From an uncultured Gemmatimonadales bacterium (lineage in GTDB: Bacteria; Gemmatimonadota; Gemmatimonadetes; Gemmatimonadales; GWC2-71-9): 64,000 bases of DNA. Of the stretch, positions 6,792-62,800 are shown in pieces (position 1 is the stretch's first letter; the number at the start of each line of letters is the position of its first letter). The notes under the pieces were generated by a model. It saw nothing but the letters and a program-made list of their open reading frames with translations. It searched no databases and was not told the DNA's origin. The stretch covers positions 25,921 to 89,920 of the forward strand of contig CAVVKJ010000019.1 of the NCBI GenBank assembly GCA_963748815.1. Reading direction: 5' to 3'. A program made the translations under genes and the position numbers.

Positions 6792-6925
6792 GCCACGTTA
6801 CGGCAGGATCTTCAGGCCGTCAATGGCGTCTCGGGCGGCCCCGCTCACCCCATGGAGTGCGGCGGTGGGCACACGGAGCGGCGTGGCCGATGTGACCACC
6901 GCAACGCGAACGCCAAAACGGGGGG

Positions 6926-10575: not shown

Positions 10576-10583
10576 GGACGATC

Positions 10584-33002: not shown

Positions 33003-33047
33003 CCTCACCCCCTGTCCCCCTCTCCATGATATGGAGAGGGGGAACGC
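33003..33047. repeat. family B palindrome (inverse orientation)
   Basis: CCTCACCCCCTGTCCCCCTCTCCATGATATGGAGAGGGGGAACGCC. Confidence 0.85.
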
Positions 33048-39373: not shown

Positions 39374-39392
39374 TGCATTTCCGGAGCCCCAT

Positions 39393-43308: not shown

Positions 43309-43487
43309 AGGCCGCGACCCCAGCACACAGACTCCACGACCGTACTCGAAGTGGAAGGAATTCCTAGCGGGTCACTGGTGGCCGCACCACCGGGGCGGCC
43401 CACACGCCACCTATCCGCGTCCACTGATGTCATGCCTGATGTGGGGACCTCTATGCCTAGGGGACCCACCGACCCCGGCGAGATCTC

Positions 43488-44168: not shown

Positions 44169-44212
44169 ATCTGCCCCTGGTGAAAGTCACATGCGACGAC
44201 CCGATCGACTAC

Positions 44213-45166: not shown

Positions 45167-46799
45167 TCTCGACCGCCAGCCTCCCAGTCACGGAGAAGGT
45201 GGAGTACTCCGTCGTTGCGCGGTCCTGGGGCATGAATGTCACATCCGGCTCCTTCGCCCGTTCCCGCTTCGTCTCCACAGTCGTCTGCTCCGGCTCATAA
45301 CGCAGATTGTGTAACGGAAAGAGATACTTGCTGCGACGTTGGTCGAAACCCCACGTAAGGGTATTCTCCACCTCGAGCACTTCCTTGAGCAGATTCCCAA
45401 CTTCCTCAGACCATGCTTCGTGGTTGTTGATGGTGACCAAGGGCTGCGCGCTCAGGCCTGGCGGCACCCGCAAACCACGTCCAAGTACCTGTGCGATCAA
45501 CAATTTGGAGGAAAATGCCCGTGATTCGTGCGGCACGATTTGAAAGATATTCTTGACGTCCCAGCCTTCGGTAAGCATGGAGACTGAAACGATCCACTCC
45601 ACAGGGCTTCCCGGCTCGTCGACCTGCTTGAGCATGGCCAGGTTCTCCATCCGTCGCTTTTCCGGAGAATCCTTGGCATCACGGGGGCAATGGGCTGCCT
45701 CCACCCTCGCCTTCCCGGCACCAGACGGCACACCAGACGTCACCCATATCGCCTTGTTGGTCGCTTCCTCACGCGTGATCTTCTCCTTCTTCATGAGGAA
45801 GTCCACCAGTTCCCTCCAGACCTCCACACACCTGGCAATCTCCTGGGTGACGACAATCGACATCGGCTTCACTAGCTTGCCGTAGTCCTTTTGATTCTGC
45901 TGATGAATAGCGTATGTCTTGCGCCAATCATGATTGGTGTAGGTGTCTTCCAGTTTGTAGTTTGGCTTCTTGACGACCTTGTCGGCGATGGCCTGCTTCA
46001 AGCCATAACGAAAAACGACATCGGGGAAGTAGTCGTCGACTATATATGGTGTGCCGGAAACGTTCACGATCTGTCGGAAGCTGAACTCCTCGTGCTGCAA
46101 GAACTTCATCCATTCCTTCAAACCCTTGTCTGGCGGGCTGAACAGGTGATGCGCCTCGTCGTTCAATACCAGCGTACGCCCACCGCGCCCCCGGAGGCTA
46201 TCTCGGATAGACGAGCCAGTATTCTCGTACACCGCGTGGATATTTTCCACGCAAATGTCGCCTGCATGAATGGTCTCGTTGCCGTGCTTGATGGCGGGAA
46301 TGGCCACCGCGGCGCCAAGTTCTTGCATGATGCCGGAGAGCTCGCCAGTCCCTGCCAGCGAAGTGAACTTCTCCAACAGCCCCTCTTCAATGGTGAGCGA
46401 CGGGCACAGGACCAAGACCCGGTCCACGAGCCCCTCGGCCAGGGCTATGGCCGCCAGAGCATACATCACAAAGCTCTTGCCAGATCCGGTTGCAAGGTCC
46501 AGCGACACCGACTTCCGGTCCCGGAGGGGCATCTTGCTGAGGTAAGCATCAATGCTCTCATGCCGTTGCTGAATCGGCTCGCGCTTGTTCCAATTCTCCC
46601 GTGCAAGCTGCTCGAGGTTCGAATACTTGTCTGAGACAAGGAATCGAAGGACCTCACGGACAGCGTCGCGCTGGAATGCATATTGATCGGCGCAGAGCAT
46701 GTTTAGGAAGGCGTCGTACTTGTGGATCACTGCCTCTGTGGAGTCGCGGCTATCGTCCACCAATAGGACCTGATCGGCAATGCGGAATTGGAGGCTCAT
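45090..46799 (-). CDS. res: type III restriction enzyme Res, SF2 helicase/translocase part
   Basis: ATG 46799. 'DLATGSGKSFV' (Walker A), 'LVLNDEAHHLF' (DEAH), 'VSGTPY', 'MLTEGWDVKNIF', 'QVLGRGLR'. Confidence 0.85.
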   Translation of the reverse strand: MSLQFRIADQVLLVDDSRDSTEAVIHKYDAFLNMLCADQYAFQRDAVREVLRFLVSDKYSNLEQLARENWNKREPIQQRHESIDAYLSKMPLRDRKSVSLDLATGSGKSFVMYALAAIALAEGLVDRVLVLCPSLTIEEGLLEKFTSLAGTGELSGIMQELGAAVAIPAIKHGNETIHAGDICVENIHAVYENTGSSIRDSLRGRGGRTLVLNDEAHHLFSPPDKGLKEWMKFLQHEEFSFRQIVNVSGTPYIVDDYFPDVVFRYGLKQAIADKVVKKPNYKLEDTYTNHDWRKTYAIHQQNQKDYGKLVKPMSIVVTQEIARCVEVWRELVDFLMKKEKITREEATNKAIWVTSGVPSGAGKARVEAAHCPRDAKDSPEKRRMENLAMLKQVDEPGSPVEWIVSVSMLTEGWDVKNIFQIVPHESRAFSSKLLIAQVLGRGLRVPPGLSAQPLVTINNHEAWSEEVGNLLKEVLEVENTLTWGFDQRRSKYLFPLHNLRYEPEQTTVETKRERAKEPDVTFMPQDRATTEYSTFSVTGRLAVEIEHDDILEHRRCCETVAALPARKGR

Positions 46800-46836
46800 G
46801 TTGCCCTACGCCCCTTTCGTGCCCCCGCCTTCTTCT

Positions 46837-48417
46837 TCACGGTCTTTGTAGGCTTGCGACGCGGCGCGCCCTCAAAGTCCCCTCTTTCAGCAGCAGCGCC
46901 TTCTCATTTCCATACCGGTCGCAGAGAATCATCATCATCTGCTTCCCGCTGAAGTCCGCCTCCGCGACTCGCAGTTGCAGCCGCTGCGCGCCTTCCAGCC
47001 CACCAGCTGCCTTGACTATGTCCTCTCCCCACAGCACGTGGCTCAACCGAAAGACGTTTCCGTCGTAGTGGGTATCGACCATGGCCATGGAAAATGTCTC
47101 GAAGTTGCGGAAATCCTCGGGGTCGGTCGCCAGCGTCTGGGCCCGGAATTCCGTGATCTCCAGGACAAAGTCAGCAAACAACTCACCAGGTAGTGCTTCT
47201 TTCTTTGCCTTCCAGGCCACTTGAGGTTGCGAGATGAAGTCGAAGCCTACAGCATCGATCACCTCATTCACAGCGGCTTCACTTGTCGGTTGCTTTAGTG
47301 CGGCTGGCATGCCCTTCTCGATCAGCCGGAGCAGTACCGAGACTGGAACCTTGAGGAAGACATACGTCGTGTCGCCCCTTGTCACCTCGTCTTCCGCAAA
47401 GTCCATCGATATCACGGGAGCAATGACATAGAATCGCTCAGCCGTCTTGCCGCGCAGGGTGCGGTGGAGGTCATCCACGTAGGCGTGGTCTAGCGTGAGC
47501 GCCGGAAAGTCCGGATAGTTCCACAGCAGCACCGAATGGGTGCCGATGTACCCATCGAGCGCCAACCCATAGCGCGTGTGGGGATGCTCCCTGACGCCAA
47601 AGAGCTTCAGCACGAATGGCCTGTAGTCCACCCACGGCAGCCCTTTGATGGTCTCCATGTCATAGACACCTGCCCGGTAGAGCGCGAACTCCTTCGCTGG
47701 CAACGGCTTGTCCTTGGCGGCCTTGTCCTTCGGCTCAATCACCGAGAGCCTGAATTCCACTCCACCAACCACGATGCGTTTGGCACCTGGCCCGTTCTCA
47801 GGTTCCGTCAACCGGTTCGAGGGGATCCGCATTTTCTCAGCTGGGCAGACCAATGACAATGACGCTCCCTGCTTCACCAAGTTGTGTGTTCCGACGAGGG
47901 TAGCCAAGTCCTTGAGCAGCTCCATCGTGACCTCGCACTCGCCTTTTCGCGCCTTGTCAGTGATGAGAAGGACGCTTGGCGCGCCTTTCAGATGGCCCGC
48001 CCAATCCTCCACTCTCTCGGGCTCGTTGCGGTCGTCCTTCCTCGATGTCCCGATGCTCGAGGTGAGTGAGAACAGGCGCTTCTGTGTGGTATAGATGGCC
48101 AACTTACCGCAATCCATGGCGATCCAGCGCCGCCCCAGCTTCTCCGCGACAGCTGGCGTGGTTCCGCTGCCGGCAAAGCAGTCGAGGACGATATCCCCTT
48201 CGTTTGATGAGGCACAGATGATGCGTTCTGCGAGCTGTTCAGGCTTCTGGGTTGGATAAGCGATGCGCTCTGCGGCTTGGCTGTTGACAGCCTTAATGTC
48301 GGTCCAGATCGACTGGATGGCAGCTCCTTTCTGCTCACTGAGGTAGGCTTTCAAGCGCGGCCACCCTCCCTTCTTTGCTGGCCAATAGATGCGCCCTTCC
48401 TTGTCAAGCCGATCCAA
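46837..48417 (-). CDS. mod: type III DNA methyltransferase Mod, C-terminal part (reading actually continues in frame from 48558)
   Basis: 'YPTQKPEQLAERII', 'VLDCFAGSGTT' (motif I), then about 380 aa of target-recognition/other region. Same frame as ORF 48559-49290. Confidence 0.85.
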   Translation of the reverse strand: MDRLDKEGRIYWPAKKGGWPRLKAYLSEQKGAAIQSIWTDIKAVNSQAAERIAYPTQKPEQLAERIICASSNEGDIVLDCFAGSGTTPAVAEKLGRRWIAMDCGKLAIYTTQKRLFSLTSSIGTSRKDDRNEPERVEDWAGHLKGAPSVLLITDKARKGECEVTMELLKDLATLVGTHNLVKQGASLSLVCPAEKMRIPSNRLTEPENGPGAKRIVVGGVEFRLSVIEPKDKAAKDKPLPAKEFALYRAGVYDMETIKGLPWVDYRPFVLKLFGVREHPHTRYGLALDGYIGTHSVLLWNYPDFPALTLDHAYVDDLHRTLRGKTAERFYVIAPVISMDFAEDEVTRGDTTYVFLKVPVSVLLRLIEKGMPAALKQPTSEAAVNEVIDAVGFDFISQPQVAWKAKKEALPGELFADFVLEITEFRAQTLATDPEDFRNFETFSMAMVDTHYDGNVFRLSHVLWGEDIVKAAGGLEGAQRLQLRVAEADFSGKQMMMILCDRYGNEKALLLKEGTLRARRVASLQRP

Positions 48418-48558
48418 CTCCTTATTTGCAAACTTCCAGTGATTGCCTTTCGCTCCCGGGATGAACCCACGCCAAGGGCTTCCCGATGAGCCATTTCGGA
48501 GCCCAGCCTGAGTCGCGTCAATCGTTGCGAAGCGGCGTCCGTCAGCTTCACTGTAAGT

Positions 48559-49290
48559 CTAGTAACGATCGATGTAGCTTGGGTCGTGGGCCAAGAACTG
48601 TTCGTTAAAGCGGAAGTTCGTGGCTTTGGAGTAGAACAGCAGAACATCGTGAATGTGATTGAATGTATGCGAGTCACTGCGGGCAGATGTCCGCTTCCAA
48701 ATGATCTCGTTCTGGAAATTGTCTTCCCCGAACGTCTCGTCCAATACAGCCTTCAAGTAGTGACTCTTCTTCGTATCCAGGTGCACATAGATGCTACCGT
48801 CGTCGGCAAGCAGTTCGCGGAGCAGAATGAGACGGCGCCTGAGGAATTCGATGAACTGTGCGCCGAGGACCTTGTCCCGGTAGGCCTTCTCCTTGTCCTT
48901 CATGAAGTCCTGCCGCGTGGCAAACGGCGGGTCGATATAGATGAGCTTGATCTTGCCGCGTGTGCCGAGGCGGTTCGGCCCCTGTTGGTCGGCGAGCAGC
49001 TCCCGCAAAGCAAGGAGATTGTCCCCCCATACCAGCAGATTGCGCCAGCCGTCGCCATGCGGCCTCTCAGCACAAAAGGACCGCTCCAACTGCCACGGCG
49101 CTGCCGGCGTCTGGGCCAGCACCTCCTCGCGGGACAGCTTCCCCTCATAGACCAGCCGGTACTCCTTGCCGATTTGAGAGGCGCGCCCGACGTCAGGAAA
49201 GAGGCGCTGTCGCCACTGTTCGGATAAGGGAGTCCCCGACTTGAGTAGGTTGTTGAGGTGCTGGCGCTCGGCGTCGTTCAAAGGCTTCAT
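48559..49290 (-). CDS. mod: type III DNA methyltransferase Mod, N-terminal part ending at an in-frame TAG
   Basis: ATG 49290. 'LIYIDPPFATRQDF' (motif IV DPPF, beta-class order). 'IYVHLD', 'NEIIWKR'. TAG at 48559-48561. Confidence 0.85.
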   Translation of the reverse strand: MKPLNDAERQHLNNLLKSGTPLSEQWRQRLFPDVGRASQIGKEYRLVYEGKLSREEVLAQTPAAPWQLERSFCAERPHGDGWRNLLVWGDNLLALRELLADQQGPNRLGTRGKIKLIYIDPPFATRQDFMKDKEKAYRDKVLGAQFIEFLRRRLILLRELLADDGSIYVHLDTKKSHYLKAVLDETFGEDNFQNEIIWKRTSARSDSHTFNHIHDVLLFYSKATNFRFNEQFLAHDPSYIDRY

Positions 49291-49340
49291 GGATAGTGGG
49301 TCCAGTGGTTGTTCTAGGAGTGGGGCGACCGTGGAACCGA

Positions 49341-51137
49341 CTACAACTTTCTGAAGTACTTCTTGATGCGCGCTGCCATTAACCTCCGACGTTCGACCAG
49401 GAAGCTATCATAATCCTCGGCCAAGCCATCGAATATCCCCTCCGGAATGCAGTGCTGCTCCAGGTTCTTGCGAAGGTCTTCCCTGTCGTCTAACCCTCCC
49501 AACTTGCGCTTGCCTCCAACGCATTGCTTCTCAACAGCACGGAAGTAGTCTGATGGGGGACGCGCACCAATCGCAATGTTGATTTCACTCTGCGTCACTG
49601 CAAAGTTCGCGATTTGGTTATACTTGCCGCGCTGCAATCCCTGGGCTTTTAAGTGCTTGCGTGGAAATATATGGTGCACATCGGAATGGTTCTCGATGAG
49701 ATCCTGCACGGTGATATCACGGGACAGGAACCCCAGGTCCCCCAGTTTCACTTGCGCTGCCTGGAACACCAGGAAGAAGGGGCTCCTTGTTGAGGAGGTC
49801 TCCATCTGCTGAGGGAGGAGGACATTCCAGAAGTCATCCGTGAGCGAGGAAGTCACGGTGGTGTCAACGTGCTGCTTGAGACCACGCTCGTCGATCTGCC
49901 GAATATCGGAGTCAAAGGCGGATTCCGGCGTCCCGCTGTAGCGGCCGGTCAGCATCGACATCACAAACCATTGTTTCACAAGGCGCTCGATCTCGGCGGA
50001 CTCCACCTTGTCTGCCCGACCACGCAGATAAATGATGTACGCAAAGTTGATGGCGTTTTGGCTGCCGATGAGGTCCGGGCTCACGAAACCGGCAGATCGC
50101 AGGATCATGATGAGACGCTCAAAGTGCGTCTTGTTGATGAAATTGTGCACGCCGGTGCGCAGTTTAGTGAACGATTCCTCCGCGATGGCCTCCTCGTACT
50201 GCTTCGTTTCGAAATTGCGTCCGGAGAGCAGGGCCACGAGGTCTTGAAGCTTCCCCCGCTTGAACTCGCTCGTGAAGGCCACCCTGAGCATGTCCGTGTA
50301 TGACGGGTCGTAAATGTCGTCGTTGGTGTCCTTCAGCCACCCAATTTTGGGGAAGAACTCTGATTTGGCAAACACAGGGTCACCGTTCTTGATCTTGCTA
50401 TAGAACTCGGGCGCCACTGCCAGGTGACAGAAGTAGTCAATCGCCTTGCGCAGCAGATTCCCGCCATAGGTGTCGTTGGCAGCAATTTTGGACATCGCGA
50501 AGTCGGCCTGACTCAGTTCCTTGCCGGCCGAGTTTACTCGAATGAAAATCTCTGTGACCGTTTCGATGTCGAGGTCGTCAGATAGATCGATGATGCCGAC
50601 ATGGTTATTGATGATCTTGCGAAGTGTCTCGAGCGTGGTGAAGACCGTGTCTTCGCTCATCCCGGGATTGTCCGCGGCATACGCCTTGGTGATCTGGAGA
50701 AGTTTCGCATCCGGCGCGAAGACTGCTGAGACGTCCGGAATCCAGGCCGAGTCCCGCTGAATGGCGGGATTGGACACCTCGAACAGCTCATTGCCCGGAT
50801 GGAAAGCGATCCGGATCCGCGCCGTCTCGTAATCCTTGTTGACCACTTCATAACCGAGGAGTGCCGCCATCAGGGCGGTCACCCTCTGCTGGCCATCGAT
50901 GAGGATGCGCTTGCCTGCTGACGGACTCCCGTCCTTGAGACGTACGGTGGGATTACGCCATGCGATGAGATATCCTACGGGGTATCCGCGGTAGAGCGAG
51001 TCCAACAGACCCCGAACCTGAGTCGCATCCCAGACAAATGGGCGTTGAATTTCTGGGATCGCGATCTCGCCAGACTTGACCCAAGTGAGCAGCGTGTCAA
51101 TTGGGTGCGGAGTGACTGTATATCGCTGGGTTGCCAT
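49341..51137 (-). CDS. GmrSD-like type IV restriction endonuclease (DUF262 + DUF1524)
   Basis: ATG 51137 after AAAGGGA (alternative GTG 51146). '[10 protein letters not shown]', '[11 protein letters not shown]' (DUF262 DGQQR). C-terminal '[11 protein letters not shown]...[10 protein letters not shown]' (His-Me/DUF1524). Confidence 0.85.
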
Positions 51138-51257
51138 CGGTTTCACGTCCCTTTGTCGCGGTATTCAATGAAGGATTGTGACGCGCTGTCCTACCGTCAT
51201 GTGCACATCCGCTCAGGCATGGGTGCCCGCATCAGGCGGTCGCCGCGCAAGCCAATG

Positions 51258-53249
51258 CTACTCGAACGGGTATTGCTCTGGTACGTAATCGTACCCGCTG
51301 CACTCCCACACCCACTGTCGGCATTGCCGAGTTAGGGTGAGCCTGTCAGTGGGGTCTGGAATGAAGGCAATCTCTAAGTGGCTCTGTGTCTGCCGCACCA
51401 CGGCCAAATGGTACTTCGCCCCCATCTGGCGTGCGACGGCTTCCTCATTCGTCGTCAGGGTAAACGACTGGCCAACATAGTCGATGAGCTTTACCTCGAT
51501 GGCCATGCTTTCCCCCTGGTCTGTCCTCCCTTCTATGTCGTAACCGATATTCTCTCTGCTCACATCCTTCACTTGCCAGCCCCGAGAAGCAAGAATGTCG
51601 AGCACTTGCTGCTCGGCGCTCCGCCATTTCTTGAGGCTCACTGGACCTGCAGTAGACCTAGTGGTTTGTTGGCCAACGGCACCGACCTTCCTCGGCGGAC
51701 CCCACTCGCCGAGCAAACGGATTGCAGATGCCTCGTTGCTCATGGCGGTGAGAAGGCGAACGACCTCTCCGCTACTGCGCACCTTCTCCCTGACTTGGTC
51801 GACAAAGGTGGATGCGAGTGGCGTGCCGTGCCGCAGTGCAGTCTCCAAGGACTCAGGTCGAATGCCCGTCGGCCACAACTTCCAAGCACTCTTAAGATTC
51901 CCAGGCGCGATCTGTCTGGTAGATAGAAGGGTCGTCAAGTGCGCGACCACTTCCGCGGCGCCAGACTCAGAGGGAGCTAGGGTGACCAAAGCAGGTGCGA
52001 TGTTCTGAAAGTTTGCCTCCCTCGCACCAAGAAACCTCAGGAAGACCCTCAATCCTTCCGTGGCTTCGAGGTTGCGCGGGACTACTCTTAGACCCGCTTT
52101 GGTGGCCACAGCATAGAAATCGACCGCATTGAGCCAAGTCGGCCGCAAGTAGAGGTCATCCCAATGGTTTGCGGCATATCGTTGAATTGCAGAGTACAAC
52201 TCCGTGCGAAAGGACCGACGCTGGAGGCCAGCCATTCGGGGGTCGGCAATCGGGACCAGAGCGGCAAGCAGGCGGATGTCGCCAGAACTGAATACGCACT
52301 CGCGAACCAGGTCCACGATGAATGCCGCTGCCACGTTGATAGCTCCGGACGTCCGATCGTCCAACACCACCCGAGTGCGCGAAGGGTCGGTGCTGATGTC
52401 ACCATTCAGCTTGAAGGAAAACCCTGAAGCTTCCAACGTTGGGAGGAAGGCATGAACGACAGCCCTCCGTTCATCCAGTCGAACGATGCCCGTCGGATCG
52501 TGGACAAATCCCAAAGCAATGTCATCTCTCTCCATGATCGTCCATTGGAAAGATCCTTCCACGCTCGCCAAGCGCAGCGATCGAACCCCAGGTGCTTGAT
52601 TCTCCCGACGAATGGTGACGAGGGTGTCGATATCCCCACGCAGTTCCATCTGTCGCACGTTGCGCAGGAATAGAAGCCCAGAAGGGTCGAAGGCCGCGAA
52701 TTCTGCCTCGATTCCAGTGGCGATCAACCCGGCAAATACGAAAACGGTATTGAAGCCGTCGGCATTAAGTTTGTCGATTTCCTTGCCGAAGGGTACGCGG
52801 TCTGATGGCAGAAGCGGATGGGGAATGCGAATCAGCGGAACCCGGCTCGCTTCTGGGATGTCAAGTGCGGTACGTTCTCGTGAAAACGTGGCTGCAAGCT
52901 CTCCACTCAAGACGTGCACGGTGTGAGCGAATCCTACGACTGACTTGAAGCCGATACCGCGGAATCCAATGCAAACACCTCTTTCCTTCAAAGAGGACGC
53001 GCTGCGGCACAGGCTTTGGAAGTCATTCAGAGTGAATGAGTTGCCGTCGTTTGCTACCAGCAGGAAACCATCCGTCCGTCGAACACTGAACCTTGCCGCC
53101 CCAGCATCGTCTGCATTCTGAAGGAGCTCGACAAACGAACGCGCGTCGTAGCTCTCAGCAATGTACTGCTCCAGTCCGGCAAGATCCGAAAGCAGGCCGG
53201 GAGACTGGCGGGCCTCACTCAGTAGGCTGTCCCTGACAGTTGTGAGCAT
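51258..53249 (-). CDS. GHKL (sacsin/Hsp90-like) ATPase fused to a C-terminal DUF3883 restriction-endonuclease-like domain
   Basis: 'FVELLQNADDAGA' (N-box ExxxNAxD), 'VANDGNSF', 'GFRGIGFKSV'. C-terminal 'WRSAEQQVLDILASRGWQVKDVS..IGYDIEG...MAIEVKLI..FTLTTNEEAVA..YHLAVV'. Confidence 0.8.
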   Translation of the reverse strand: MLTTVRDSLLSEARQSPGLLSDLAGLEQYIAESYDARSFVELLQNADDAGAARFSVRRTDGFLLVANDGNSFTLNDFQSLCRSASSLKERGVCIGFRGIGFKSVVGFAHTVHVLSGELAATFSRERTALDIPEASRVPLIRIPHPLLPSDRVPFGKEIDKLNADGFNTVFVFAGLIATGIEAEFAAFDPSGLLFLRNVRQMELRGDIDTLVTIRRENQAPGVRSLRLASVEGSFQWTIMERDDIALGFVHDPTGIVRLDERRAVVHAFLPTLEASGFSFKLNGDISTDPSRTRVVLDDRTSGAINVAAAFIVDLVRECVFSSGDIRLLAALVPIADPRMAGLQRRSFRTELYSAIQRYAANHWDDLYLRPTWLNAVDFYAVATKAGLRVVPRNLEATEGLRVFLRFLGAREANFQNIAPALVTLAPSESGAAEVVAHLTTLLSTRQIAPGNLKSAWKLWPTGIRPESLETALRHGTPLASTFVDQVREKVRSSGEVVRLLTAMSNEASAIRLLGEWGPPRKVGAVGQQTTRSTAGPVSLKKWRSAEQQVLDILASRGWQVKDVSRENIGYDIEGRTDQGESMAIEVKLIDYVGQSFTLTTNEEAVARQMGAKYHLAVVRQTQSHLEIAFIPDPTDRLTLTRQCRQWVWECSGYDYVPEQYPFE

Positions 53250-53254
53250 GGATG

Positions 53255-54022
53255 TCAGTTCGGTTCGGGATAGATGCGAATGCGATGTACGGCTGAGATT
53301 TCAAGGTGGTTTATCCATATTTCGAACGTAGAGAAGAGGTTAAAACTCTCCCTATAGAACGAGTCGCTATTGATCGCCAACACACGGCCATGCGGGCCGT
53401 AGACCACCGCCTTCAAAACAGTGTCCTGCGTAAGCGTGGCGCCGTCTCTAGAATAGATTTCGCCAAGAATTGTGAGTTGGTTTGACTCTACGGATACCCG
53501 CACCGAGAGACCCTCTAGTCGAATACCGAGTTGCTCCTCAAGTACTTCTAGTCGTTCGATATGTTCGAGCAATCGGTCTGCTAATTGGCTTTCGGATAGT
53601 GGGAGGTCCTCGACTTGCGTCATTGCAAGCTTCCAACCCTCATCGGCAGGAAGATCGGGGTCGATACAGTCGAACCGCATTGCGATCTTCTTGCCAGAAT
53701 GCGGCACGCTAGCATGGCAGTACAGCGCGTCGCCGATGCAGATCTCCTGAAGGTGGCGCCGATAGAAGACCAGCCCACACTTCCTACTGGCATTGGGAAG
53801 GATCGTTTCCGATTCGACCAGGTAGCCCGTCAACCAAATGCTCTGAGTGAGTTGCTCGCCAGCGGCGGTGACGTACGTAGCCTTGGAAACCTCTATTCCC
53901 CTAGGCACGGAAGCGAAATTTCTAATCGCGAGGTAGAAGAGGTAGGCCTCTTCGTCGTTGTTCATCTCCGTTTCCTCAATCGAGGAGATCTGGAATTGGA
54001 AACCGACGAGATCAGATGTCAT
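53255..54022 (-). CDS. hypothetical protein, no recognisable domain; first gene of the island
   Basis: 255 aa. Its stop TGA (53255-53257) lies 5 nt before the ATG of the GHKL gene. Two beta-rich halves are joined by the helical 'SESQLADRLLEHIERLEVLEEQLGIRLE'. A+T-rich codon usage like the rest of the island. Confidence 0.6.
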   Translation of the reverse strand: MTSDLVGFQFQISSIEETEMNNDEEAYLFYLAIRNFASVPRGIEVSKATYVTAAGEQLTQSIWLTGYLVESETILPNASRKCGLVFYRRHLQEICIGDALYCHASVPHSGKKIAMRFDCIDPDLPADEGWKLAMTQVEDLPLSESQLADRLLEHIERLEVLEEQLGIRLEGLSVRVSVESNQLTILGEIYSRDGATLTQDTVLKAVVYGPHGRVLAINSDSFYRESFNLFSTFEIWINHLEISAVHRIRIYPEPN

Positions 54023-54305
54023 ACCTCACACCCTGGTGCGAGCATAGTATCGGTATCACGTACCATGAAGTTGCCTCGACTGCCGACTAGACATCCAATG
54101 GAAGGACAAGATGTGGAGATGTTGACGTCAGGACTCACCTAACCATGAATGCGATCGGACCGACACGGTGGACCAAGGGTTTGTGCTTCAGCTTGGACCG
54201 AACTTCCAAATGTACCCACTGGATATACCCGCGATAGGGCAGTGTCCTGCCGTGGCGAGCGAGCTTTGCGGGGCCAGACTGCTCCCGCCTCGGCGCTTGG
54301 CCTGC

Positions 54306-54569
54306 CTACCTCGGCACCACCCTTCGCTCCCCGAACACCTCGGCGTCCGCACCGACGCACTTGTAGTCGAGCACCTCTGGAAGATCGCCGGCGTGCAGGT
54401 AGCTGGCGCCCCCGACCTGGCCGGTGGAGGAGTAGATCTCGAAGTTGACCTCGCCGTCGAGCACGAGATGGATCTGCGCCAGGTTGCTCTTCTCGCCACG
54501 GGCCACGTTGACCACCACCGCCTCGATCCGCTTCCCGATCAGATGCTGCCAGCCACCCTTGATGGACAT
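54306..54569 (-). CDS. small hypothetical protein
   Basis: ATG 54569 ('MSIKGGWQHLIGKRIEAVVVN..'). High-G+C codon usage. Downstream of the WYL genes. Confidence 0.45.
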   Translation of the reverse strand: MSIKGGWQHLIGKRIEAVVVNVARGEKSNLAQIHLVLDGEVNFEIYSSTGQVGGASYLHAGDLPEVLDYKCVGADAEVFGERRVVPR

Positions 54570-54638
54570 CCATGCCTCCAAGTCGTTTGACCTCCCTCAG
54601 GTGGCCCTGACGATACGGTGGGGGTGTGACATTCCCTG

Positions 54639-54727
54639 ACGTCCCCCCTCTCCAGGAGGGAGAGGGGTTGGGGGTGAGGGGGTACCCCCCCTCTCCGCTA
54701 GCCGGAGAGGGGGCCGGGGGGTGAGGA
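54639..54727. repeat. two adjacent family B-type palindromes
   Basis: GTCCCCCCTCTCCAGGAGGGAGAGGGGTTGGGGGTGAGGGGG and TACCCCCCCTCTCCGCTAGCCGGAGAGGGGGCCGGGGGGTGAGG. Confidence 0.8.
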
Positions 54728-54730
54728 CGA

Positions 54731-55675
54731 TCATTCCAGGATCTCCTTCAGCCCCTGCGCAATCGCCTCCCGAATTTCCTTCGGCTCCACCACCTCCGCA
54801 TCCGGGCCGTACTGCAGCACATGCCGGAGCGCCCAGTGCGGGTCGGCCAGCGGGTGCTCGAGCGTGACCGTCCCGTCGGCCTCCACCGGCACCCACTCCC
54901 GCTCCGCCACCCACCGCGCCACCCGCGCCGAGTACCGCACGGTGAGCGTCCCCACCCCCTCCGCCACGAACATCTTCCGCTCCCGCAGCACGGCATCCAC
55001 CGAAAACTCCGCCGGCACCTCGAATTCCTCGTCGGTCACCTCCACCGCGTCCATCCGGTCCAATCGGAAGAACCGCAGCCCCGTGGCCCCGTCCGCCAGC
55101 GCCACCAGGTACCAGCTCAGCTCGGCGTACACCACCGCCAGCGGCGCCGCCACCCGCGTGGCCGCCGCGTCCGCCCCGCTCTTGTGATAGGAGAACCGCA
55201 CCCGCGTCCGTTCGCGCACCGCACCACGCAGCAGCGAGAGCATCTCGAGGTCCACCGCCCCGCCCAGCGACGCCGAAAAATCCTTCTCCTGGATGTCCTG
55301 CCCCGGCAGCTTGGCGATCACCTGCCGTAGCCGCTCCCGCGCGCCGTCGATGGCCCGCGTCTCGTCCGGCGGCCGCTCGGCGCGCAGCATCGCGAGCCCC
55401 AGCTCCAGCGCGCAGAGCTCCGGCAAGGTGAGCCGCATCGGGCGGAGGAAGTGATCGGACCGTACCGCCACCTGGTCCGTCTCCAGGAAGATCTGCACCC
55501 CCTCCACGAACCCGCCCGGATCGTCGAACCGCTCGGCGAGGGACTTGAGGTCCTGCAGGAGTGTCGGGCGGTCTACCCCCGCCTGCTCCGCCACCTCGTT
55601 GATGGGATGCGAACGGTCGTCGGCCAGCGTCGGGATCAGGTGCAGGATCCGCCGGAGCTGCAGCGCCGCGCTCAT
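54731..55675 (-). CDS. HTH + WYL + WCX-domain regulator (PafC-like)
   Basis: 'VRFSYHKSGADAAATRVAAPLAVVYAELSWYLVA' WYL core. N-terminal HTH 'INEVAEQAGVDRPTLLQDLKSL'. Confidence 0.8.
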   Translation of the reverse strand: MSAALQLRRILHLIPTLADDRSHPINEVAEQAGVDRPTLLQDLKSLAERFDDPGGFVEGVQIFLETDQVAVRSDHFLRPMRLTLPELCALELGLAMLRAERPPDETRAIDGARERLRQVIAKLPGQDIQEKDFSASLGGAVDLEMLSLLRGAVRERTRVRFSYHKSGADAAATRVAAPLAVVYAELSWYLVALADGATGLRFFRLDRMDAVEVTDEEFEVPAEFSVDAVLRERKMFVAEGVGTLTVRYSARVARWVAEREWVPVEADGTVTLEHPLADPHWALRHVLQYGPDAEVVEPKEIREAIAQGLKEILE

Positions 55676-56739
55676 CGGGCGTAGATCTCCGCCGTGGCGC
55701 CGGCCATCGCGCGGTACTCGGCAATCAATTCCTTCGGCGCCACCGGCGTCGCGTCACCCGCCAACGACAAGAGCCACCGCGCGAAAGCATCCACCCGCCG
55801 CACCTGGAACTTCCGCCGGTCGGGATGATTATTGACCGGTGCGCCGAGGCGGGCGGCGGCACGCGCCGGGCCGGAGCGGCGGTCGAACTCCACCTCCGCC
55901 GTCATCGCGTGGCCGTCGCCCAGTTCCCACGCCTGCCGGGACTGTGCGTGCTTCTTCAGCGAGAACTTCTCCGGTACGGCGTAGTCCGGCGTCCCCGGTG
56001 CCTGCCCATTTGCTGCCGCTCCCGTCATCCGGCTCAACCGGAAGTTCTTGACGATCTCTTCCTCCGGCGCGCGCGCCGCCAGGTACCAGTGCCGCCCCAG
56101 GAAGAAGAGCCCCATCGGCTCGACGGTGCGCTCCGCCTCCTCGTTGCGACCCATCGATCGATACGTGAAGGTGACGCGCTTCCGCCGCTCCAGCGCCCCG
56201 GCCAGCACGTCGAAAATCTCGTCGTGATTCTCGACCGGACCCGCCACCTGCACTTCAGGCGCGCGGGACGCATCCACCGGCAGGTCGAACGCCAGCTTGC
56301 GGCACGCCGAATCGGCCAGCGCCGCCAGCTCCGGCACGCCCAGCGCCCGCACCCGCGCCGCTGCCTCGGCCACCGCCGCGAGCTCGTCCGGCTCGAACGC
56401 CAGCCCGGCCAGCGCCTTGTAGCCGTAGCGGTCCACCCGCTTCGGCGCCGTCTTTCGTCCCTCCACCACCATCGACAGATACGGCAGATAGAATTCCTTC
56501 GCCGCCAGCCGGTATCCCTCGGCCTCTCCCTCGGGCGACAGCACCGTCTCGATCGGCACGCCGAAGGCGCGGAGCTCGTCCTTGTCCCGCTCGAACATCC
56601 GCCGGAGCGCCGCCTTGCTCTGCTTCCCTGGCTGATACCCCGGCACCTCCTGCGCCAGCTCGTCAAATGAGACGGCGTACCGCCGCCTGAGGAGTGCGGC
56701 GAGCAGATCAATCCAGCGCTGGAGCTTCGGTGCAGCCAT
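55672..56739 (-). CDS. HTH + WYL-domain regulator (PafB-like)
   Basis: ATG 56739 overlaps the upstream TGA. 'VTFTYRSMGRNEEAERTVEPMGLFFLGRHWYLAA'. ATGA-type 4-nt overlap with the next WYL gene. Confidence 0.8.
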   Translation of the reverse strand: MAAPKLQRWIDLLAALLRRRYAVSFDELAQEVPGYQPGKQSKAALRRMFERDKDELRAFGVPIETVLSPEGEAEGYRLAAKEFYLPYLSMVVEGRKTAPKRVDRYGYKALAGLAFEPDELAAVAEAAARVRALGVPELAALADSACRKLAFDLPVDASRAPEVQVAGPVENHDEIFDVLAGALERRKRVTFTYRSMGRNEEAERTVEPMGLFFLGRHWYLAARAPEEEIVKNFRLSRMTGAAANGQAPGTPDYAVPEKFSLKKHAQSRQAWELGDGHAMTAEVEFDRRSGPARAAARLGAPVNNHPDRRKFQVRRVDAFARWLLSLAGDATPVAPKELIAEYRAMAGATAEIYAR

Positions 56740-59700
56740 CAGTCCGCCTTGTCGTTGACACCGGGACACCACCCGACCCGCTTGTACCCGCAGAACCCGC
56801 ATTCCTTCGGATGGGCGGTCAGCTCCGCGCCGCCCGCGTCGATGGCGGCCAGCGCGTCCTGCACGCGGCGCCGCGCCCCGGCCCGCTCTTCATCATCGAT
56901 CGGCGTGCTGACCTGCGTCTCGGCGCGCGAGTACTGGAACGCGAACCGCGCCACTGGCATTCCGCCGATCGCCTCGGCGGCGGTCACGTACACGTCCCGC
57001 TGCAGCGCGTACCGGGCCGCGTTCGCGGCCGCCGCCGCGGCGTCACCCTGCGTGGTCTTCACGTCGAGCAGCACCAGGCCATCCGCCTCGCGGGCAGCCA
57101 AGTCGATCATCCCCTCGATCTGCCGGTCCGCTCCCACCAGGTGCACGAACGGCAACTCGTGGCGGCTGGTCGGGTTCTCGGCCACCGCCCGATATTCCGC
57201 TTGCTCGGCCACCAACCGGATCTCCTCGCGCAGCATCTCGCGCAGGTCGCGCTCCTCCGCCGAGTCGGGCGGCATCGCCGAATCATCCCACCGACCGATC
57301 GCGGCATCGAGCAGCGCGTCGGTGTCGGCCTCCTCCTGCATCTGCTCCAGCACGTCGTGCACGATCTGCCCGCGCGCGATGGCGCCGAGGTATCCCTGTC
57401 CCGTCCGCTCGACCGGCGGCTCCTTCAGCCCCGCCACGTATCGCAGCCAGTGCCGCCGAGCGCAGCGCCCGTGACTCATCAGCGAGGTGGCCGAATGGCG
57501 CGCCGGACCCACGGCCACCGGGAGCGGGCCAACCTGCGCCGGCAACTCCGCCGGGAGCGGCTCGACCCACGGATCTGGCGCCTCGACGGACGGTACCGGG
57601 GGACGAGGTGGTGCGAGGTGCACCGTCGCCACGAACTTTCGTCCTCCCTGGCCGGCATACTCAACCTCCCCCCCGTCGACCACCGGCACGGCGAGTCGTC
57701 CCAGCAAGGCTCTGGCTGGGGCAGCTCCACTGCTGGTCGCGCCGCAGACTCCCGCCAGGGTCGATCGCTGCTTGGCCCGCGTGGCCGCCACATACCAGAG
57801 GCGCTTGTGCTCCGCGGCCGACTCCGCATCCTGCTCCGCCTTCAGCGCCGTCCACTCGGCGGGCTGCGGGTCATCCTTGCCGGCATCGGGATCCTTGAGC
57901 GCCAGCGTATCCCGGCCGATGAGGCAGGCGTCGGCGCCCCAGCCCCCGCCGGTCACCGGTTTCCGTTCGAGGTCGCACCAGAAGACGGTGTGCCACTCGA
58001 GCCCTTTGGCGCTGTGGATCGTGGTGAGCGTCATGACATCGTCGGTCGGGCCGTACAGCCGTTCATCTCCTTCTCGATCCTCGCGATCGCGGATGTCCCT
58101 GATGATCTGCAGGAAGTCGCCCACGCTCGAACCCGACTGCTGTCGGGCGATGCGCAGGAACTTTCGCACGTTGGCGATCGCCTGATTCCCCTGCGCGCCC
58201 TGCAGCACCAGGTGGCCCAGGTAACCGCTCCGGTCGAGAAGCCCTTCGAGCAGTTCGTGGATCGGCACGCGATCCCGAAGCACCATCCGTTCCCGCAGCA
58301 GCTCGATTCCCTCGGCAAGCCGTCCGGTTTCGGCCGTGACCGCCTGCGCCAGCGCATCCCACTGCGGCGAGTCCCCCTGCCAGGCGATCTGTAGCAGCGT
58401 TTCGTCCCTGAGCCCGACGAAGGGACTCCGCAGGAATCCCAGGAGCGCCCGGTCGTCCCGCGGATCCCGGATCGTCTCCAGCGCGAGGATGAGATCCAGC
58501 ACCTCGCGCCGCTGGTAGAGTCCCTCGCCCCGCAGGGTGTAGGTCGGGACACCCGCCCGTTCCAGCGCCCGCTGGTAGATCTCCACGTCTCCCATCCCGG
58601 CAAAGAGCGCCGCCATCTCACGGTATGGGACACCCTCCGCCTTCAGCTGCACCGCACGGCGAGCCACCGCCTCCGCCTCCGCCATCCGGCGCGGTTCCGC
58701 GGTGAGCGGCTCGCCGTCGGCGTCGCCCGGCACCACCAGGATTTCCACGGCCCGGTCCGCTGGTCCCTCGGTGGTGTCCACCGCCGTGACCGAGCGGTAG
58801 TTCACCTCGAAGTCCCGGATCGTCGTCCCGTCGATCGGCGTGTCGAGCACCGGCCCGACGGTGGCATCCACGAACCCGAGAATCGGCGCGACGCTGCGGA
58901 AGTTGTCCTCCAGCGCCACGACCGTGCCCAGCCCGCCCTCCTCGAACGCCCGCTCGACCCCACGCCAAACCGTCACGTCGGCGCCGCGGAAGCGGTAGAT
59001 GCTCTGCTTCGGGTCGCCGACCAGCATCAGGCGTGTGGTATCCGCTCGACCTGACTCAGGGTCGGCCAGCAGCCAGGCGATGTCCCGCTGCACCGGGTCC
59101 ACGTCCTGGAACTCGTCCAAGATCAGTGTCCGCAACCGGCGCTGCAGCAGCCGTCGAACCGATCCGTCGTTCCGCAGCAGGTCCCGCGTCCACACGATCA
59201 TCCGATCGAAATCGATCGCGCCCTCGTCTTCCAGTCGACGCTCCAGCAGCAGCCGCGCCCGCTCCGCCAGCTCGGCCACTGCCCGCTCGCCCTCTCCGAG
59301 GCGCGTCGACTGCCGAATCCTCCTCAGCCGGTCGCCATCGCCGAGGAGGCGACGCACCCACCCTTCCACCTCGTCCTGGCGGCGCTGGGCCAGCAGGGCC
59401 TCCAGCCCCGGCACCGCATCCGCATCCAGCGCCTCGATCAGTGCGTCGCGCACCGCCTCAGCGGCCCGTGACCCGCTCTCCCCCTCCTCGAGCACGTTCA
59501 TTCCGGGGTTCTGACCCGACCGCAGCGCCGACTCGCGGAGGATGTCACCACAAAATCCGTGGATCGTCCCGATCCGCGAGTTGTCGACCTGGTAGGCGAC
59601 GTCGCCCAGTCCCGCCTCCCGGAGTGCCGCGCGGAGCTTGCGTTTCAGGTCGGCGGCAGCGGCGTTGGTGAAGGTGATCGCCCCGATCTCCTGCAGGTCG

Positions 59701-59864
59701 ATGGGCGACTCGATCCGTTCTCCCCCCACCTCCGCGCCGAGGAGGTAAAGGATGCGCGCCACGACGGTGGAGGTCTTGCCGGTGCCGGCTCCGGCCGCCA
59801 CCAGCACGTGGCGGTCGACGGCGCGGATCGCCTGCCATTGCGACGGCGTGGGTTGCCGCCTCAC
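56739..59864 (-). CDS. UvrD/Rep-type SF1A helicase with a C-terminal RecB/Cas4-like nuclease (AddA/AdnB-like)
   Basis: 'VAAGAGTGKTS' Walker A, 'LILDEFQDV', 'LEDNFRS', 'TIHSAKGLEW'. C-terminal 'GMIDLAARE..LVLLDVKTT' plus Cys cluster 'C(ARRHW)...ECGFCGYKRVGWC'. Confidence 0.85.
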   Translation of the reverse strand: MRRQPTPSQWQAIRAVDRHVLVAAGAGTGKTSTVVARILYLLGAEVGGERIESPIDLQEIGAITFTNAAAADLKRKLRAALREAGLGDVAYQVDNSRIGTIHGFCGDILRESALRSGQNPGMNVLEEGESGSRAAEAVRDALIEALDADAVPGLEALLAQRRQDEVEGWVRRLLGDGDRLRRIRQSTRLGEGERAVAELAERARLLLERRLEDEGAIDFDRMIVWTRDLLRNDGSVRRLLQRRLRTLILDEFQDVDPVQRDIAWLLADPESGRADTTRLMLVGDPKQSIYRFRGADVTVWRGVERAFEEGGLGTVVALEDNFRSVAPILGFVDATVGPVLDTPIDGTTIRDFEVNYRSVTAVDTTEGPADRAVEILVVPGDADGEPLTAEPRRMAEAEAVARRAVQLKAEGVPYREMAALFAGMGDVEIYQRALERAGVPTYTLRGEGLYQRREVLDLILALETIRDPRDDRALLGFLRSPFVGLRDETLLQIAWQGDSPQWDALAQAVTAETGRLAEGIELLRERMVLRDRVPIHELLEGLLDRSGYLGHLVLQGAQGNQAIANVRKFLRIARQQSGSSVGDFLQIIRDIRDREDREGDERLYGPTDDVMTLTTIHSAKGLEWHTVFWCDLERKPVTGGGWGADACLIGRDTLALKDPDAGKDDPQPAEWTALKAEQDAESAAEHKRLWYVAATRAKQRSTLAGVCGATSSGAAPARALLGRLAVPVVDGGEVEYAGQGGRKFVATVHLAPPRPPVPSVEAPDPWVEPLPAELPAQVGPLPVAVGPARHSATSLMSHGRCARRHWLRYVAGLKEPPVERTGQGYLGAIARGQIVHDVLEQMQEEADTDALLDAAIGRWDDSAMPPDSAEERDLREMLREEIRLVAEQAEYRAVAENPTSRHELPFVHLVGADRQIEGMIDLAAREADGLVLLDVKTTQGDAAAAAANAARYALQRDVYVTAAEAIGGMPVARFAFQYSRAETQVSTPIDDEERAGARRRVQDALAAIDAGGAELTAHPKECGFCGYKRVGWCPGVNDKAD

Positions 59865-62800
59865 ACCGCCTCCCGCGGCCCGCCGGCCACTCGGCAGATG
59901 TCGCGCGCATGGCAGAACGAGGGACAGCCGCAGGAGGGCGGCGGGTTGGCGGGGAATGCGCCGCCGCGCACACTCAGGACGTGGCGCACTACGGCGTCGA
60001 GCGCGGCGTCCATCCGGGTCGCGTCCTCACCGCCGGTGAGCAGCGTCTTCGCCTTGCGATCCACGCTGACCAGCTGGAGACTGTGCACCGCCTCCCGCTG
60101 CTTCAGCGCGCGATACTCCACTCGCGATACCACCGTGCCCGGCCGCAGCGCCGAAAGGGCGTGGGCGTAGAGCGGCACCTGGAGCACCACCCCCTCGTCC
60201 CACGCCTTCTTCTTGCCCCCGCCCGGCGCGGCGTACTTGCTCGACTTGTAGTCCACCGCCGCGACGTAGTGGCTCGACTCGACCCGCTCGTCGATGCCGA
60301 CTTCCACCCGGTCGATGGTGCCCCGGAACCGGAACCGGACGCCTCCCCGTTCGAGGACCGCGTCCGTGAAGCTCAGCTCGTGGCGCTCCACGCCGGTCCG
60401 GAGCACGAACGCGTTGTTGGTGCGATTGTTGAACAGCTTCTCGTTGTAGGCGATCTCGAACTCGAGGTAGCGCGTCAGCATCCGCGCCATGTTGGCCCGC
60501 TTCGCGGGGGCGAGGGAGGGATGGCCGAGCCAGTCCGTCTCCCCCGAGGCGTCGAGGGCCGCGTCGAGCGCGGCGCGGAGCCGCGGGATCGCCTCCGCGT
60601 GGTCGCCCTTGAGGAGCAGGACCGGCTCGCCGCGCCGCGCAAACTCCCCGTCGAAGAACCGGGCGAGCGCGTCGTGGAGGACGGTACCGAAGGTCCTCGG
60701 GTCCATCTCGTCTTCCGGATCCTTCCGTTCCGAAATGCCGAGCAGCCTCGACGAGAAGTACGCCCAGGGACACTTGGCGTACGCCTCGAGCTGGGTCGGG
60801 CTCCAGAGGTACTCGTCCCCGAACTGCCGGCCCAGTCGCGCGACGAGGTCCCGATCGGTGATCTGGCCGTTCCAGGGACCGGGCAGACCCCTGGCTCGGT
60901 CCAGCTCGACGCGCGCCGCATACTCCGCCTGTCGCGCTGCGCCAGGAGTCGCGGCGATCCGCACGCCGGGCGTGAGCACGCGCGACGGCGTCAGGGTGTC
61001 CTCCGCGAGCGTCGCCACTTCGCCGAGCGCCTCGATGAACGCGCTCCGCACCACTTCCCGGCTGGCCGGATCGATGCTCGCGTACGATACCGTGAGCGAC
61101 TCCTGGGCTCCCGCAACAAGGACCCGGAAGAGTTCGCGTTCGCGGCGCTCCCACTCGGCGCGGAGCTCCAGCGAAACGCCCCCTGCCACGAGCGACGCCC
61201 GCTCCGATTCGTCGAGCAGTGGAGAGCCGGGCGCGCGCACCGGGAAGCGGCCCGACTCCATCCCCACCACGAACAGGTGGCGGACATGCCGGTACATCCC
61301 GGCAAGACCCTCAACCACCGGCACGCCCCGCCGGTTCGGCGACCAGAGCGCGATCTCGTGATCCAGCAGGTCGGTGAGTTGTGCGTGGAGATCCACGGCG
61401 CCGAGCGCGGTCGGGCTGGAGCCCCACTCCTCGACCGCCGTTTGCCACTCCTCCACCAGCGTCGTCAGTCCCTTCCATCCCTGGAGGTCGAGCCGCACCA
61501 CGTCGAACCGGTCGCCCGGGACGCGCTCGATGCGCGCCTTCATCTGCCACGGATCGTCGGTGAGGAACCGGTGCAGCCAGGCGAGCCACTCCCTGAGCGG
61601 CTGGCGGACGTCGAGTTCGCGGGCCTGCGCAGCGAATCGGTCGAAGGTGGCTGATTTGCCGTCGGGCGCTGCATCTCGAATGGCCGCCGCCCACTGCTCC
61701 AGGCCGCTCACGCGGCGCGCGAACCCGATCGCGTTGATCTGCGCGGCGTCCACGTCGTTCTCGAAGTACGGCTGGTCGGCCAGCTCCGCGAGCCCGTGCC
61801 GGGACCATCCGTCGGCGGCGGCGCCGAAGAGCGCGGCCAGGGCGCGGACCACGGGGATATCGCGCAGTGCGTGCCGGCGGCGCAGGGTGGCGGGCACCCC
61901 GAACCGTTCCAGCGCGGCGGCGGCCATCTCGGTATAGGGACGGGCCTGGCGGGCCACCACCGCCATCCGGTGCAGCGGGACCCCGTTGTCCGCCAGTTCC
62001 CGGATGCGGCGCGCCACTTCCTCCATTTCGCGCTCCACGTCCGGCGCGGCGATGACCGCGACCGTTCCGGTGCGTGCCGTCGGGGATGAACTGAATAGCC
62101 GGGTGGCGATTGCCTCCGGCTCCTCGAGGCGCTTCACGGTCGGCGCGAGATCGTCACGGAGGTCGAGGAGTTCCGACGAGTAGATGGTGATGCGATCGAG
62201 GGCGGGGTGAGCGCGAAGCGCGCGGAGGAGTGGGCGCCACCCGTTCCGGAGATCCTGCAAACCGAAGAGCCGGAGCTCACGGCGGCCGCCGAGCTGCTCG
62301 GTCGTCCGGTCAGGATCGGCCAGAATGGCCTGGGCGCAGTCCGCCCAGCCATCGCGTCCGTCCCGGCGCCCCGCGGCATTGAGTGCCTCGAGGTACCCGG
62401 CGTAAATGGCCGCGAGCTCGGCATCGCGCACCTGCTCGAAGTCGTCCCTTCCGTCCCGCCCCGCCAGCGCATTTGCGAAGTGCGCCGGTTCGACTCCCTC
62501 ACTGACCAACTCACCGATGAGCCGATCCACCGCCGAGAGGAATCGTTCGAGGTGCCTGAGCCGGCCGAGGAGGCCGGTGGCGCGCTCGCGGATCAGGCGG
62601 GCGAGAAGGGTGCGGCGGTCGAGCTCGGTCAGCGGCCGCCGATCGGTCCGGCCCAGCCACGTCGGGAGTTCCTGGAAGGTGAAGAGCGGCGGATCATACC
62701 AGCCACCCACCCCCCGTTCGAAGGCGAGGGCGTAGAGGTCATCCCGGATGCCCCCCTGCCGGAGCGCCAGGACGACCGATGGTGACGGGAATGGATTCTC

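Follow-up and report, generated by a model that had tools for sequence, protein, structure and literature searches.

Tiamat and GHKL-Shedu are validated anti-phage systems in which a GHKL ATPase is fused to a nuclease. Tiamat, which is catalogued by PADLOC and DefenseFinder, is described in the literature as a single-gene system, and its protein, TmtA, carries a sacsin-type GHKL domain at the N-terminus and a DUF3883/NOV_C PD-(D/E)xK domain at the C-terminus. Here, we analyze a pair of adjacent genes, A and B, found in a 64,000-nucleotide (nt) stretch of DNA from an uncultured Gemmatimonadales bacterium (contig CAVVKJ010000019.1; the whole stretch is hereafter called the window, and coordinates are positions within it unless another locus is named). 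Both genes lie on the minus strand and begin with ATG: A (53255-54022) encodes a protein of 255 amino acids (aa), and B (51258-53249) a protein of 663 aa with the same two types of end domain as TmtA. The pair is a real, widespread and unnamed two-gene cassette, and it is probably a two-gene variant of the GHKL-nuclease defence class that has not been described previously.

The assignment of B as a GHKL ATPase joined to a nuclease is based on profile matches, invariant catalytic residues, and comparisons using AlphaFold and Foldseek. B contains the motifs ELLQNADDAGA, GFRGIGFKSV and GYDIEG...IEVK, in which an earlier note on this DNA, made from its letters alone, had recognized a GHKL ATPase and a DUF3883 module; profiles and invariant residues agree with the motifs on both counts. 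The ATPase domain, which is of the Bergerat-fold type seen in sacsin, Hsp90 and MORC proteins and includes an S5-like second lobe, occupies residues ~30-300 (52350-53162). It is matched by NCBIfam P_loop_sacsin (expect value E=9e-19, residues 37-113), weakly by Pfam SACS, and by PADLOC TmtA (E=4e-41 over residues 6-297). In an alignment of 22 B homologues sharing 50-63% identity, the N-box residues E41, N45, D47 and D48 (E41-L-L-Q-N45-A-D47-D48) and K280 of the second lobe are invariant, while the G1 box (D68-G69) and the G2 box (G95-F-R97-G98-I-G100-F-K102-S) are invariant or nearly so. The hallmarks of the GHKL superfamily, namely the N-box, the G1 and G2 boxes, and a Bergerat fold with an S5-like transducer lobe, are thus all present in B. 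In the AlphaFold model (mean predicted local distance difference test score, pLDDT, 83.9), which comprises the GHKL domain with its second lobe, a helical middle, a disordered linker and an alpha/beta nuclease domain, a low-confidence loop at residues 84-100 coincides with the expected position of the ATP lid. Foldseek aligns the N-terminal half of the model with Hsp90/TRAP1 (E~1e-8), the SR1 region of sacsin (5v46, 20-21% identity) and the MORC4 ATPase (7k7t).

The middle domain of B (residues 301-517; 51699-52349) is helical, with AlphaFold helices spanning residues 298-516 at a pLDDT mostly above 85. It is also basic, with an isoelectric point (pI) of 9.6, which makes it a candidate surface for binding DNA or a partner. 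A disordered linker (residues 518-542; 51624-51698) follows, with a pLDDT below 50 and a length that varies across the 22-sequence alignment, and leads to the DUF3883/NOV_C nuclease domain (residues 543-663 and the stop codon; 51258-51623). Pfam PF13020 (NOV_C) matches residues 549-624 at E=1.2e-12 with a score of 48.1 bits (curated cut-off 22.1), and DUF3883 has been placed in the PD-(D/E)xK superfamily (PMC3424549). Within this domain E546, D571, E573, E585, K587, N601, E602 and E603 are invariant in the 22 homologues, and D571, E585 and K587 form the catalytic D...(D/E)-x-K triad. Judged by these features, B looks like a GHKL ATPase tethered to a nuclease of the restriction-endonuclease fold, with both parts looking catalytically competent. 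The B family has at least 1196 cluster representatives, mostly of 660-680 aa, distributed patchily over many phyla with 50-63% identity between distant lineages. Sequence searches of the PDB with the family profiles of A and B returned no relatives. In a RefSeq plasmid record, B is labelled a 'DUF3883 domain-containing protein' and the adjacent upstream gene a 'hypothetical protein'.

Nine TmtA profiles in PADLOC match B, but the best of them (E=4e-41) is covered only at positions 17-333 of 1538, i.e. over about one fifth of its length, so that B falls short of full-length TmtA membership. By comparison, a bona fide TmtA recovered in our genome scan (locus L073) matches its profile at positions 2-1359 of 1370 (E=0) and runs from an N-terminal SACS domain to a C-terminal NOV_C domain. 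The TmtA profiles are 1063-1782 positions long versus the 663 residues of B, which is without ~750 residues of the TmtA middle. Since both end domains are common to the two proteins and the middle is missing, B is, on sequence comparison, a short homologue of TmtA.

The best functional analogue of B is VcSduA of Vibrio cholerae, in which a GHKL ATPase is joined to a DUF4263 PD-(D/E)xK nuclease and mutation of either the ATPase or the nuclease abolishes defence (PMC12137116). This paraMORC3-type Shedu protein resembles B in size and in its layout of an N-terminal GHKL domain, a clamp-like middle and a C-terminal PD-(D/E)xK domain. It differs in that its nuclease is DUF4263 rather than DUF3883, its GHKL domain belongs to another subfamily, and it is encoded by a single gene with no Ig-like (immunoglobulin-like) partner; in addition, B has no DUF4263 or SduA match in Pfam or PADLOC and does not fall within Shedu. 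The paraMORC proteins, including the paraMORC3 family of VcSduA, were first linked to restriction-modification (R-M) contexts by Iyer, Abhiman and Aravind (2008). Prokaryotic MORC and paraMORC proteins share with B a GHKL plus S5 engine combined with nucleases of the restriction-endonuclease fold, and are likewise sporadic and laterally mobile. However, they adjoin superfamily 2 (SF2) helicases, methylases or Vsr/HNH nucleases, whereas the A-B pair has no such conserved neighbours, and B lies in the sacsin-like branch of the GHKL proteins, unlike the MORC and paraMORC proteins of R-M operons. More distant resemblances are confined to single domains. HmaA, PD-T4-1 and PDC-S36 match the C-terminal domain of B weakly (E=4e-5 to 8e-6) but have helicases or other modules at the N-terminus. 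The GHKL domain of eukaryotic sacsin belongs to the same subfamily as that of B, and plant NO VEIN ends in the same NOV_C domain; both, however, are giant proteins of eukaryotes that act as chaperones or in development, and they share only domain homology with B. The earlier note knew of no named and tested system with this pairing. This holds in that the pair matches no PADLOC system and that we found no paper describing it in the literature on DUF3883, GHKL, sacsin or Tiamat in phage defence; it needs qualifying in that a tested relative, TmtA, has both end domains of B.

The upstream protein, A, has no match in the Pfam, NCBIfam or PADLOC libraries. A word-indexed homologue search returns one match with the single sequence and three with a 44-sequence profile, the sole single-sequence match being the orthologue (59% identity) in L001, a syntenic locus in a related organism with 74-76% nucleotide identity to the window over the flank and the island that contains the pair. 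The earlier note had called A an orphan. This is not so: when 1.84 billion representatives were searched exhaustively with HMMER, 508 A homologues were found at E<=1e-3, each of them a cluster representative at 50% identity. Only the C-terminal half of A proves to be the conserved partner domain. A looks like an orphan only to word-indexed searches and to the three libraries; the word-indexed searches by themselves would have wrongly confirmed that label. Among the best 150 matches, 49 are full-length relatives of ~250 aa, 47 are proteins of ~110 aa that cover only A residues ~146-254, and 28 are larger proteins that contain only A residues ~7-165.

The AlphaFold model of A, built from the 44-sequence alignment, has a pLDDT of 95.8, with strands at residues 8-139 and 167-254 and helices at 144-164 between them, in agreement with the two beta-rich halves and connecting helix that had been read from the sequence earlier. 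Each half is a beta-sandwich of seven to nine strands, similar to immunoglobulin and fibronectin type III (FnIII) domains. Foldseek retrieves RbmA, the barrel domains of factor XIII, IL-17RA and a viral DUF4352 protein, with template modelling scores (TM-scores) of 0.2-0.3 that are low because the orientation of the domains differs; none of the Foldseek matches is enzyme-like. We refer to the N-terminal sandwich as An (residues 1-140; 53603-54022; pLDDT >90) and to the helix plus C-terminal sandwich as Ac (residues ~141-255). An, whose fold is Ig/FnIII/DUF4352-like, is the variable head of the protein. Ac, comprising the helix of residues 144-164 with an IERLExFEE motif and the sandwich of residues 165-255, is encoded together with the stop codon at 53255-53602 and is the constant, B-associated module; E156, R157, E162, Y208 and F227 are nearly invariant in it, and it also exists as stand-alone proteins of ~110 aa. 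The 508-representative family, the confidence of the model and the syntenic orthologue establish A as a genuine coding gene. An with the helix (A residues ~7-165) is also seen near the C-terminus of proteins of 400-1300 aa (P0159, P0164, P0172, P0181, P0183, P0184, P0186, P0194 and P0204), in the company of Lcl_C domains, InlB B-repeats and ankyrin repeats and with TerB_C following An; this context is a different one and looks extracellular.

The association of A with B was examined in both directions. In the B-centred survey, a genome scan gave 80 loci, and open reading frames (ORFs) were called around 52 full-length B homologues. An Ac ORF directly adjoins every B homologue down to ~31% identity (28 complete loci, including the window and L001), unlike Tiamat, which has no partner gene; no signal of an Ac-like segment was detected inside 13 large TmtA-like proteins. 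The Ac ORF is present even at L020, L022, L034 and L044, where the copies of B are truncated or frameshifted. Ac is likewise adjacent to B in each of three additional homologues that were looked up on long contigs, one of the ORFs having been missed by the gene caller of the source. The missed ORF lies at positions 7652-7990 of L091, directly upstream of the B homologue, and encodes an Ac protein of ~113 aa that is uncalled in the source assembly; small Ac partners are probably under-annotated. The Ac-B loci come from Verrucomicrobiota, Bacteroidota, Beta- and Gammaproteobacteria, Firmicutes, Chloroflexi, Hydrogenedentota, Deferribacteres and others. The Ac ORF is mostly upstream of B, with a gap mostly between -4 and +23 nt and at most 69 nt; it is downstream in L013, L017, L021 and L028, and in L042 there is one on each side. 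In the A-centred direction, all six A-family proteins looked up (one of them an FtsK-gamma fusion) adjoin a B homologue, which may come before or after them. Furthermore, over the 28 loci, pairwise distances among the Ac segments are strongly correlated with those among the B proteins (Mantel r = 0.86; none of 2000 permutations reached that value). The earlier note would have abandoned its proposal if homologues of A never stood beside GHKL-DUF3883 genes; they do so in every case examined and diversify together with them.

These results make it very likely that A and B form a functional two-gene unit. They also bear on the idea that B acts alone as a miniature Tiamat, with A either an accessory that it can dispense with or a neighbour unrelated to it. 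This could be drawn from the single-gene nature of Tiamat and of VcSduA, which has a similar layout, and from the presence of both enzymatic domains in B. Functionless neighbours would not be retained as strictly as A is, with adjacency in every case and from both directions, correlated divergence, and tight or overlapping spacing across phyla, and we regard this idea as very unlikely.

While Ac is constant, the rest of the partner protein is not. The head is absent, leaving a partner of ~110 aa, in L002, L006, L009, L014, L019, L051, L090 and L091. An is the head in the window, L001 and L008, the only such cases among the genome-scan loci with B homologues, as well as in L082, L083 and L085 from the A-family look-ups. 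Sel1 repeats take its place in L004 and L089, a second Ac in L042, and FtsK-gamma plus An in proteins P0131 and P0128; several further heads are unrecognized domains, and most alternative N-termini have no match in Pfam. The head appears to have been gained and lost often, since close relatives of B (59-61% identity) are paired with An plus Ac or with Ac alone. P0131 (positions 1630-3396 of L087, with a B homologue directly after it) and P0128 are full-length A-type proteins fused to an N-terminal FtsK-gamma winged-helix domain, which reads DNA, and this fusion hints that some of the heads bind DNA. Cassettes with two Ac genes also occur. In L089 a Sel1-Ac gene (6585-7631) and an Ac-only gene (7585-8001) stand in tandem, and in L042 a tandem Ac-Ac protein is encoded upstream of B (7276-7983) and another Ac downstream (10317-10631).

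More distant clades of short GHKL-DUF3883 proteins have other adjacent partners: ~300 aa and upstream in Actinobacteria (L048-L063), ~200 aa and upstream in Firmicutes (L039, L041, L043 and L088), and ~150 aa and downstream in Bacteroidota (L027, L031 and L036). None of these families matches anything in Pfam, and hhalign finds no detectable homology to Ac or to full-length A (probability <=2%). A partner gene thus seems to be the general rule of the short GHKL-DUF3883 form.

The nature of the partner is relevant to the main alternative for its role, in which the cassette would resemble a toxin-antitoxin system and persist as an addiction module by post-segregational killing, B being a DNA-cutting toxin and A an acidic antitoxin that blocks its basic surface. 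Ac is indeed acidic (mean pI 4.7, net charge -2 to -21 over the 28 loci) and opposite in charge to the middle domain of B, and the small partner is usually upstream and tightly coupled. Also in keeping with an addiction module are the substitution of other partner families in distant clades that retain B, the presence of Xre-type helix-turn-helix (HTH) genes upstream of the pair in L083 and L087, and the occurrence of the pair as a mobile two-gene unit in unrelated contexts, including housekeeping neighbourhoods and, in one case, a region with MobC and IS200 genes. However, B precedes A at some loci, the Sel1, FtsK-gamma and An heads resemble recognition modules more than parts of an antitoxin, and the homologous TmtA acts as a single gene without any antitoxin. 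We consider an addiction module unlikely as the explanation of the cassette. It should be noted that a toxin-antitoxin role does not preclude one in defence, and antitoxin-like inhibition by A would be compatible with both.

To define the extent of the cassette, 145 neighbours of the pair at ~35 loci were surveyed using Pfam and PADLOC. No family occurs more than twice among them, which indicates that the cassette has no third gene. The window itself might have suggested otherwise. Downstream of the pair are a GmrSD-type gene (49341-51146; Pfam GmrSD_N, E=8e-30) and the genes of a type III R-M system, in which Mod is in two parts (48559-49290 and 46837-48417), as is Res (45090-46799 and 44213-45166). 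All of these genes have the same orientation as the pair and lie in one low-G+C (guanine plus cytosine) island, GmrSD is beside the pair in L001 too, and the GHKL domains of paraMORC proteins have been tied to R-M operons, as noted above; the pair could accordingly be a component of a larger island system with GmrSD and type III R-M. L001, however, is just a syntenic relative of the window, and at the other loci neither R-M nor GmrSD families turn up repeatedly among the neighbours. In addition, a lone in-frame TAG (48559-48561) breaks Mod, and beyond it the frame runs on from ORF 48559-49290 into 46837-48417, and Res is frameshifted between its two ORFs, which overlap at 45090-45166. Unless these are sequencing errors, the type III R-M system looks inactivated. 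Both GmrSD and the R-M genes were rejected as parts of the system, and a larger island system is highly improbable. The earlier note had placed the pair directly upstream of these genes; that is the arrangement here, but it is local to the lineage.

With its limits set at two genes, we lean towards the view that the A-B cassette is a self-contained, horizontally mobile system directed against phages or other mobile DNA. This reading draws on the homology of B to TmtA, its analogy to VcSduA, the presence of GmrSD and type III R-M genes in the same island, and the defence genes scattered among its neighbours elsewhere, which include AbiE, AbiL, dGTPase, AriA, Hhe, type I methylases and PADLOC candidate (PDC) families. 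Several points weigh against it. PADLOC-DB v2.0.0 recognizes nothing in A and only a partial TmtA in B. Several cassettes (e.g. L090 and L091) are located among housekeeping genes without defence neighbours. The breakdown of the neighbouring R-M system means that the island may be decaying. Finally, the unrelated partners of the distant B clades imply that the role of the partner may be a generic one, such as stabilization or antitoxin-like inhibition, rather than sensing.

The cassettes among core genes, together with a GHKL fold that is closest to Hsp90 and sacsin, could instead be taken to mean that the pair does housekeeping work: repairing DNA, maintaining the chromosome or, as a chaperone of the sacsin/Hsp90 type, controlling protein quality. 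Such a role fits poorly with a patchy family that retains 50-63% identity between distant lineages, with the location of the pair in a low-G+C island, with an intact nuclease triad and with the homology of B to a validated defence protein. The family is also rare or absent in phage genomes: no B homologue was found in 50,697 of them, and B relatives are rare on plasmids (5 weak records) and in IMG/VR contigs. Of the explanations considered here, a housekeeping role is the least probable.

If the cassette is a defence system, B would be its effector. Upon ATP binding B would dimerize through its ATPase heads, in the manner of the GHKL proteins MutL, MORC and Hsp90, with DNA or a client gripped by its basic helical middle domain; the DUF3883 PD-(D/E)xK domain on its flexible tether would then be licensed to cut DNA. 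A would act as the non-enzymatic partner, with its acidic helix and C-terminal sandwich, together Ac, as the constant piece that docks on B, and with its exchangeable N-terminal head either setting what the complex senses or restraining the nuclease until a trigger arrives. The parts of this scheme differ in strength. Since Ac co-evolves with B, Ac most likely docks on B. As the heads are exchangeable, the partner may set specificity or gating, but a specific adaptor or sensor mechanism for A is a tentative proposal that we hold to be doubtful. Similarly speculative is a more general form of the idea, in which Ac would be a hitherto unrecognized docking domain that plugs interchangeable sensor heads (An, Sel1, FtsK-gamma or a duplicated Ac) onto a GHKL-nuclease, the small protein would decide recognition, and a separate subunit would functionally replace the missing ~750-residue middle of TmtA. 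If true, this would amount to a modular 'swap-the-sensor' immune system and would explain how proteins of the Tiamat class sense infection.

Irrespective of its mechanism, the cassette represents a naturally split GHKL-nuclease, with an enzyme cut down to its catalytic ends and a basic middle, and always accompanied by a small, well-folded, non-enzymatic partner. At ~920 residues in total, it offers a compact and tractable model for studying the control of a nuclease by a GHKL clamp and the source of specificity. It also defines the Ac family of ~110 residues (508 cluster representatives), which has no Pfam, NCBIfam or PADLOC model. Pipelines for finding defence systems overlook the cassette because Ac is without a library model and its ORF was missed by at least one source gene caller.

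The two genes are closely spaced and stand at the head of the low-G+C island, as had been reported earlier. The TGA of A (53255-53257) and the ATG of B (53247-53249) are separated by a spacer of 5 nt (53250-53254), from which we infer translational coupling; the last 25 nt of A show no purine run of the Shine-Dalgarno type. The G+C content is 0.54-0.58 across 44001-54000, compared with 0.69-0.72 at 55001-62000 on one side and ~0.60-0.62 at 39001-44000 on the other, where it climbs to ~0.68 further out. The leader upstream of A (54023-54300, minus strand) contains no ORF with homologues and has a G+C content that falls relative to the adjacent 54306-54581; it presumably holds the promoter and the edge of the island. 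A scan of the A-B locus for sigma-70 consensus promoters and terminators gave nothing over background. Rfam and transfer RNA (tRNA) scans of the island border found no RNA gene.

Beyond the R-M genes and just outside the low-G+C stretch (local G+C 0.62), a DUF6946 protein is encoded on the minus strand (43488-44168; Pfam E=1.6e-80), and has no match in PADLOC. At the opposite end, the edge of the island is marked by a small minus-strand ORF (54306-54581; ~87-91 aa) with host-like G+C content and 80% nucleotide identity in L001, which sits between A and a set of palindromes resembling repetitive extragenic palindromic (REP) elements. The palindrome, CCCCTCTCC-N7-GGAGAGGGG, occurs five times in the window (13758-13782, 20074-20098, 33017-33041, 54643-54667 and 54688-54712) versus 0.01 expected, two of the copies lying between a PafC-like WYL gene and the island; L001 has extra copies of ~72 bp there (6984-7055 and 7160-7231). 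The island borders a conserved host block (54731-62905, minus strand; positions 1-6870 of L001) that is syntenic between the two loci at ~76% nucleotide identity. This block encodes two WYL/WCX regulators that are PafB/PafC-like (54731-55675 and 55672-56802) and two proteins of ~1000 aa (56739-59864 and 59861-62905), and the L001 counterpart of the first of these large proteins contains UvrD-helicase and PD-(D/E)xK nuclease domains.

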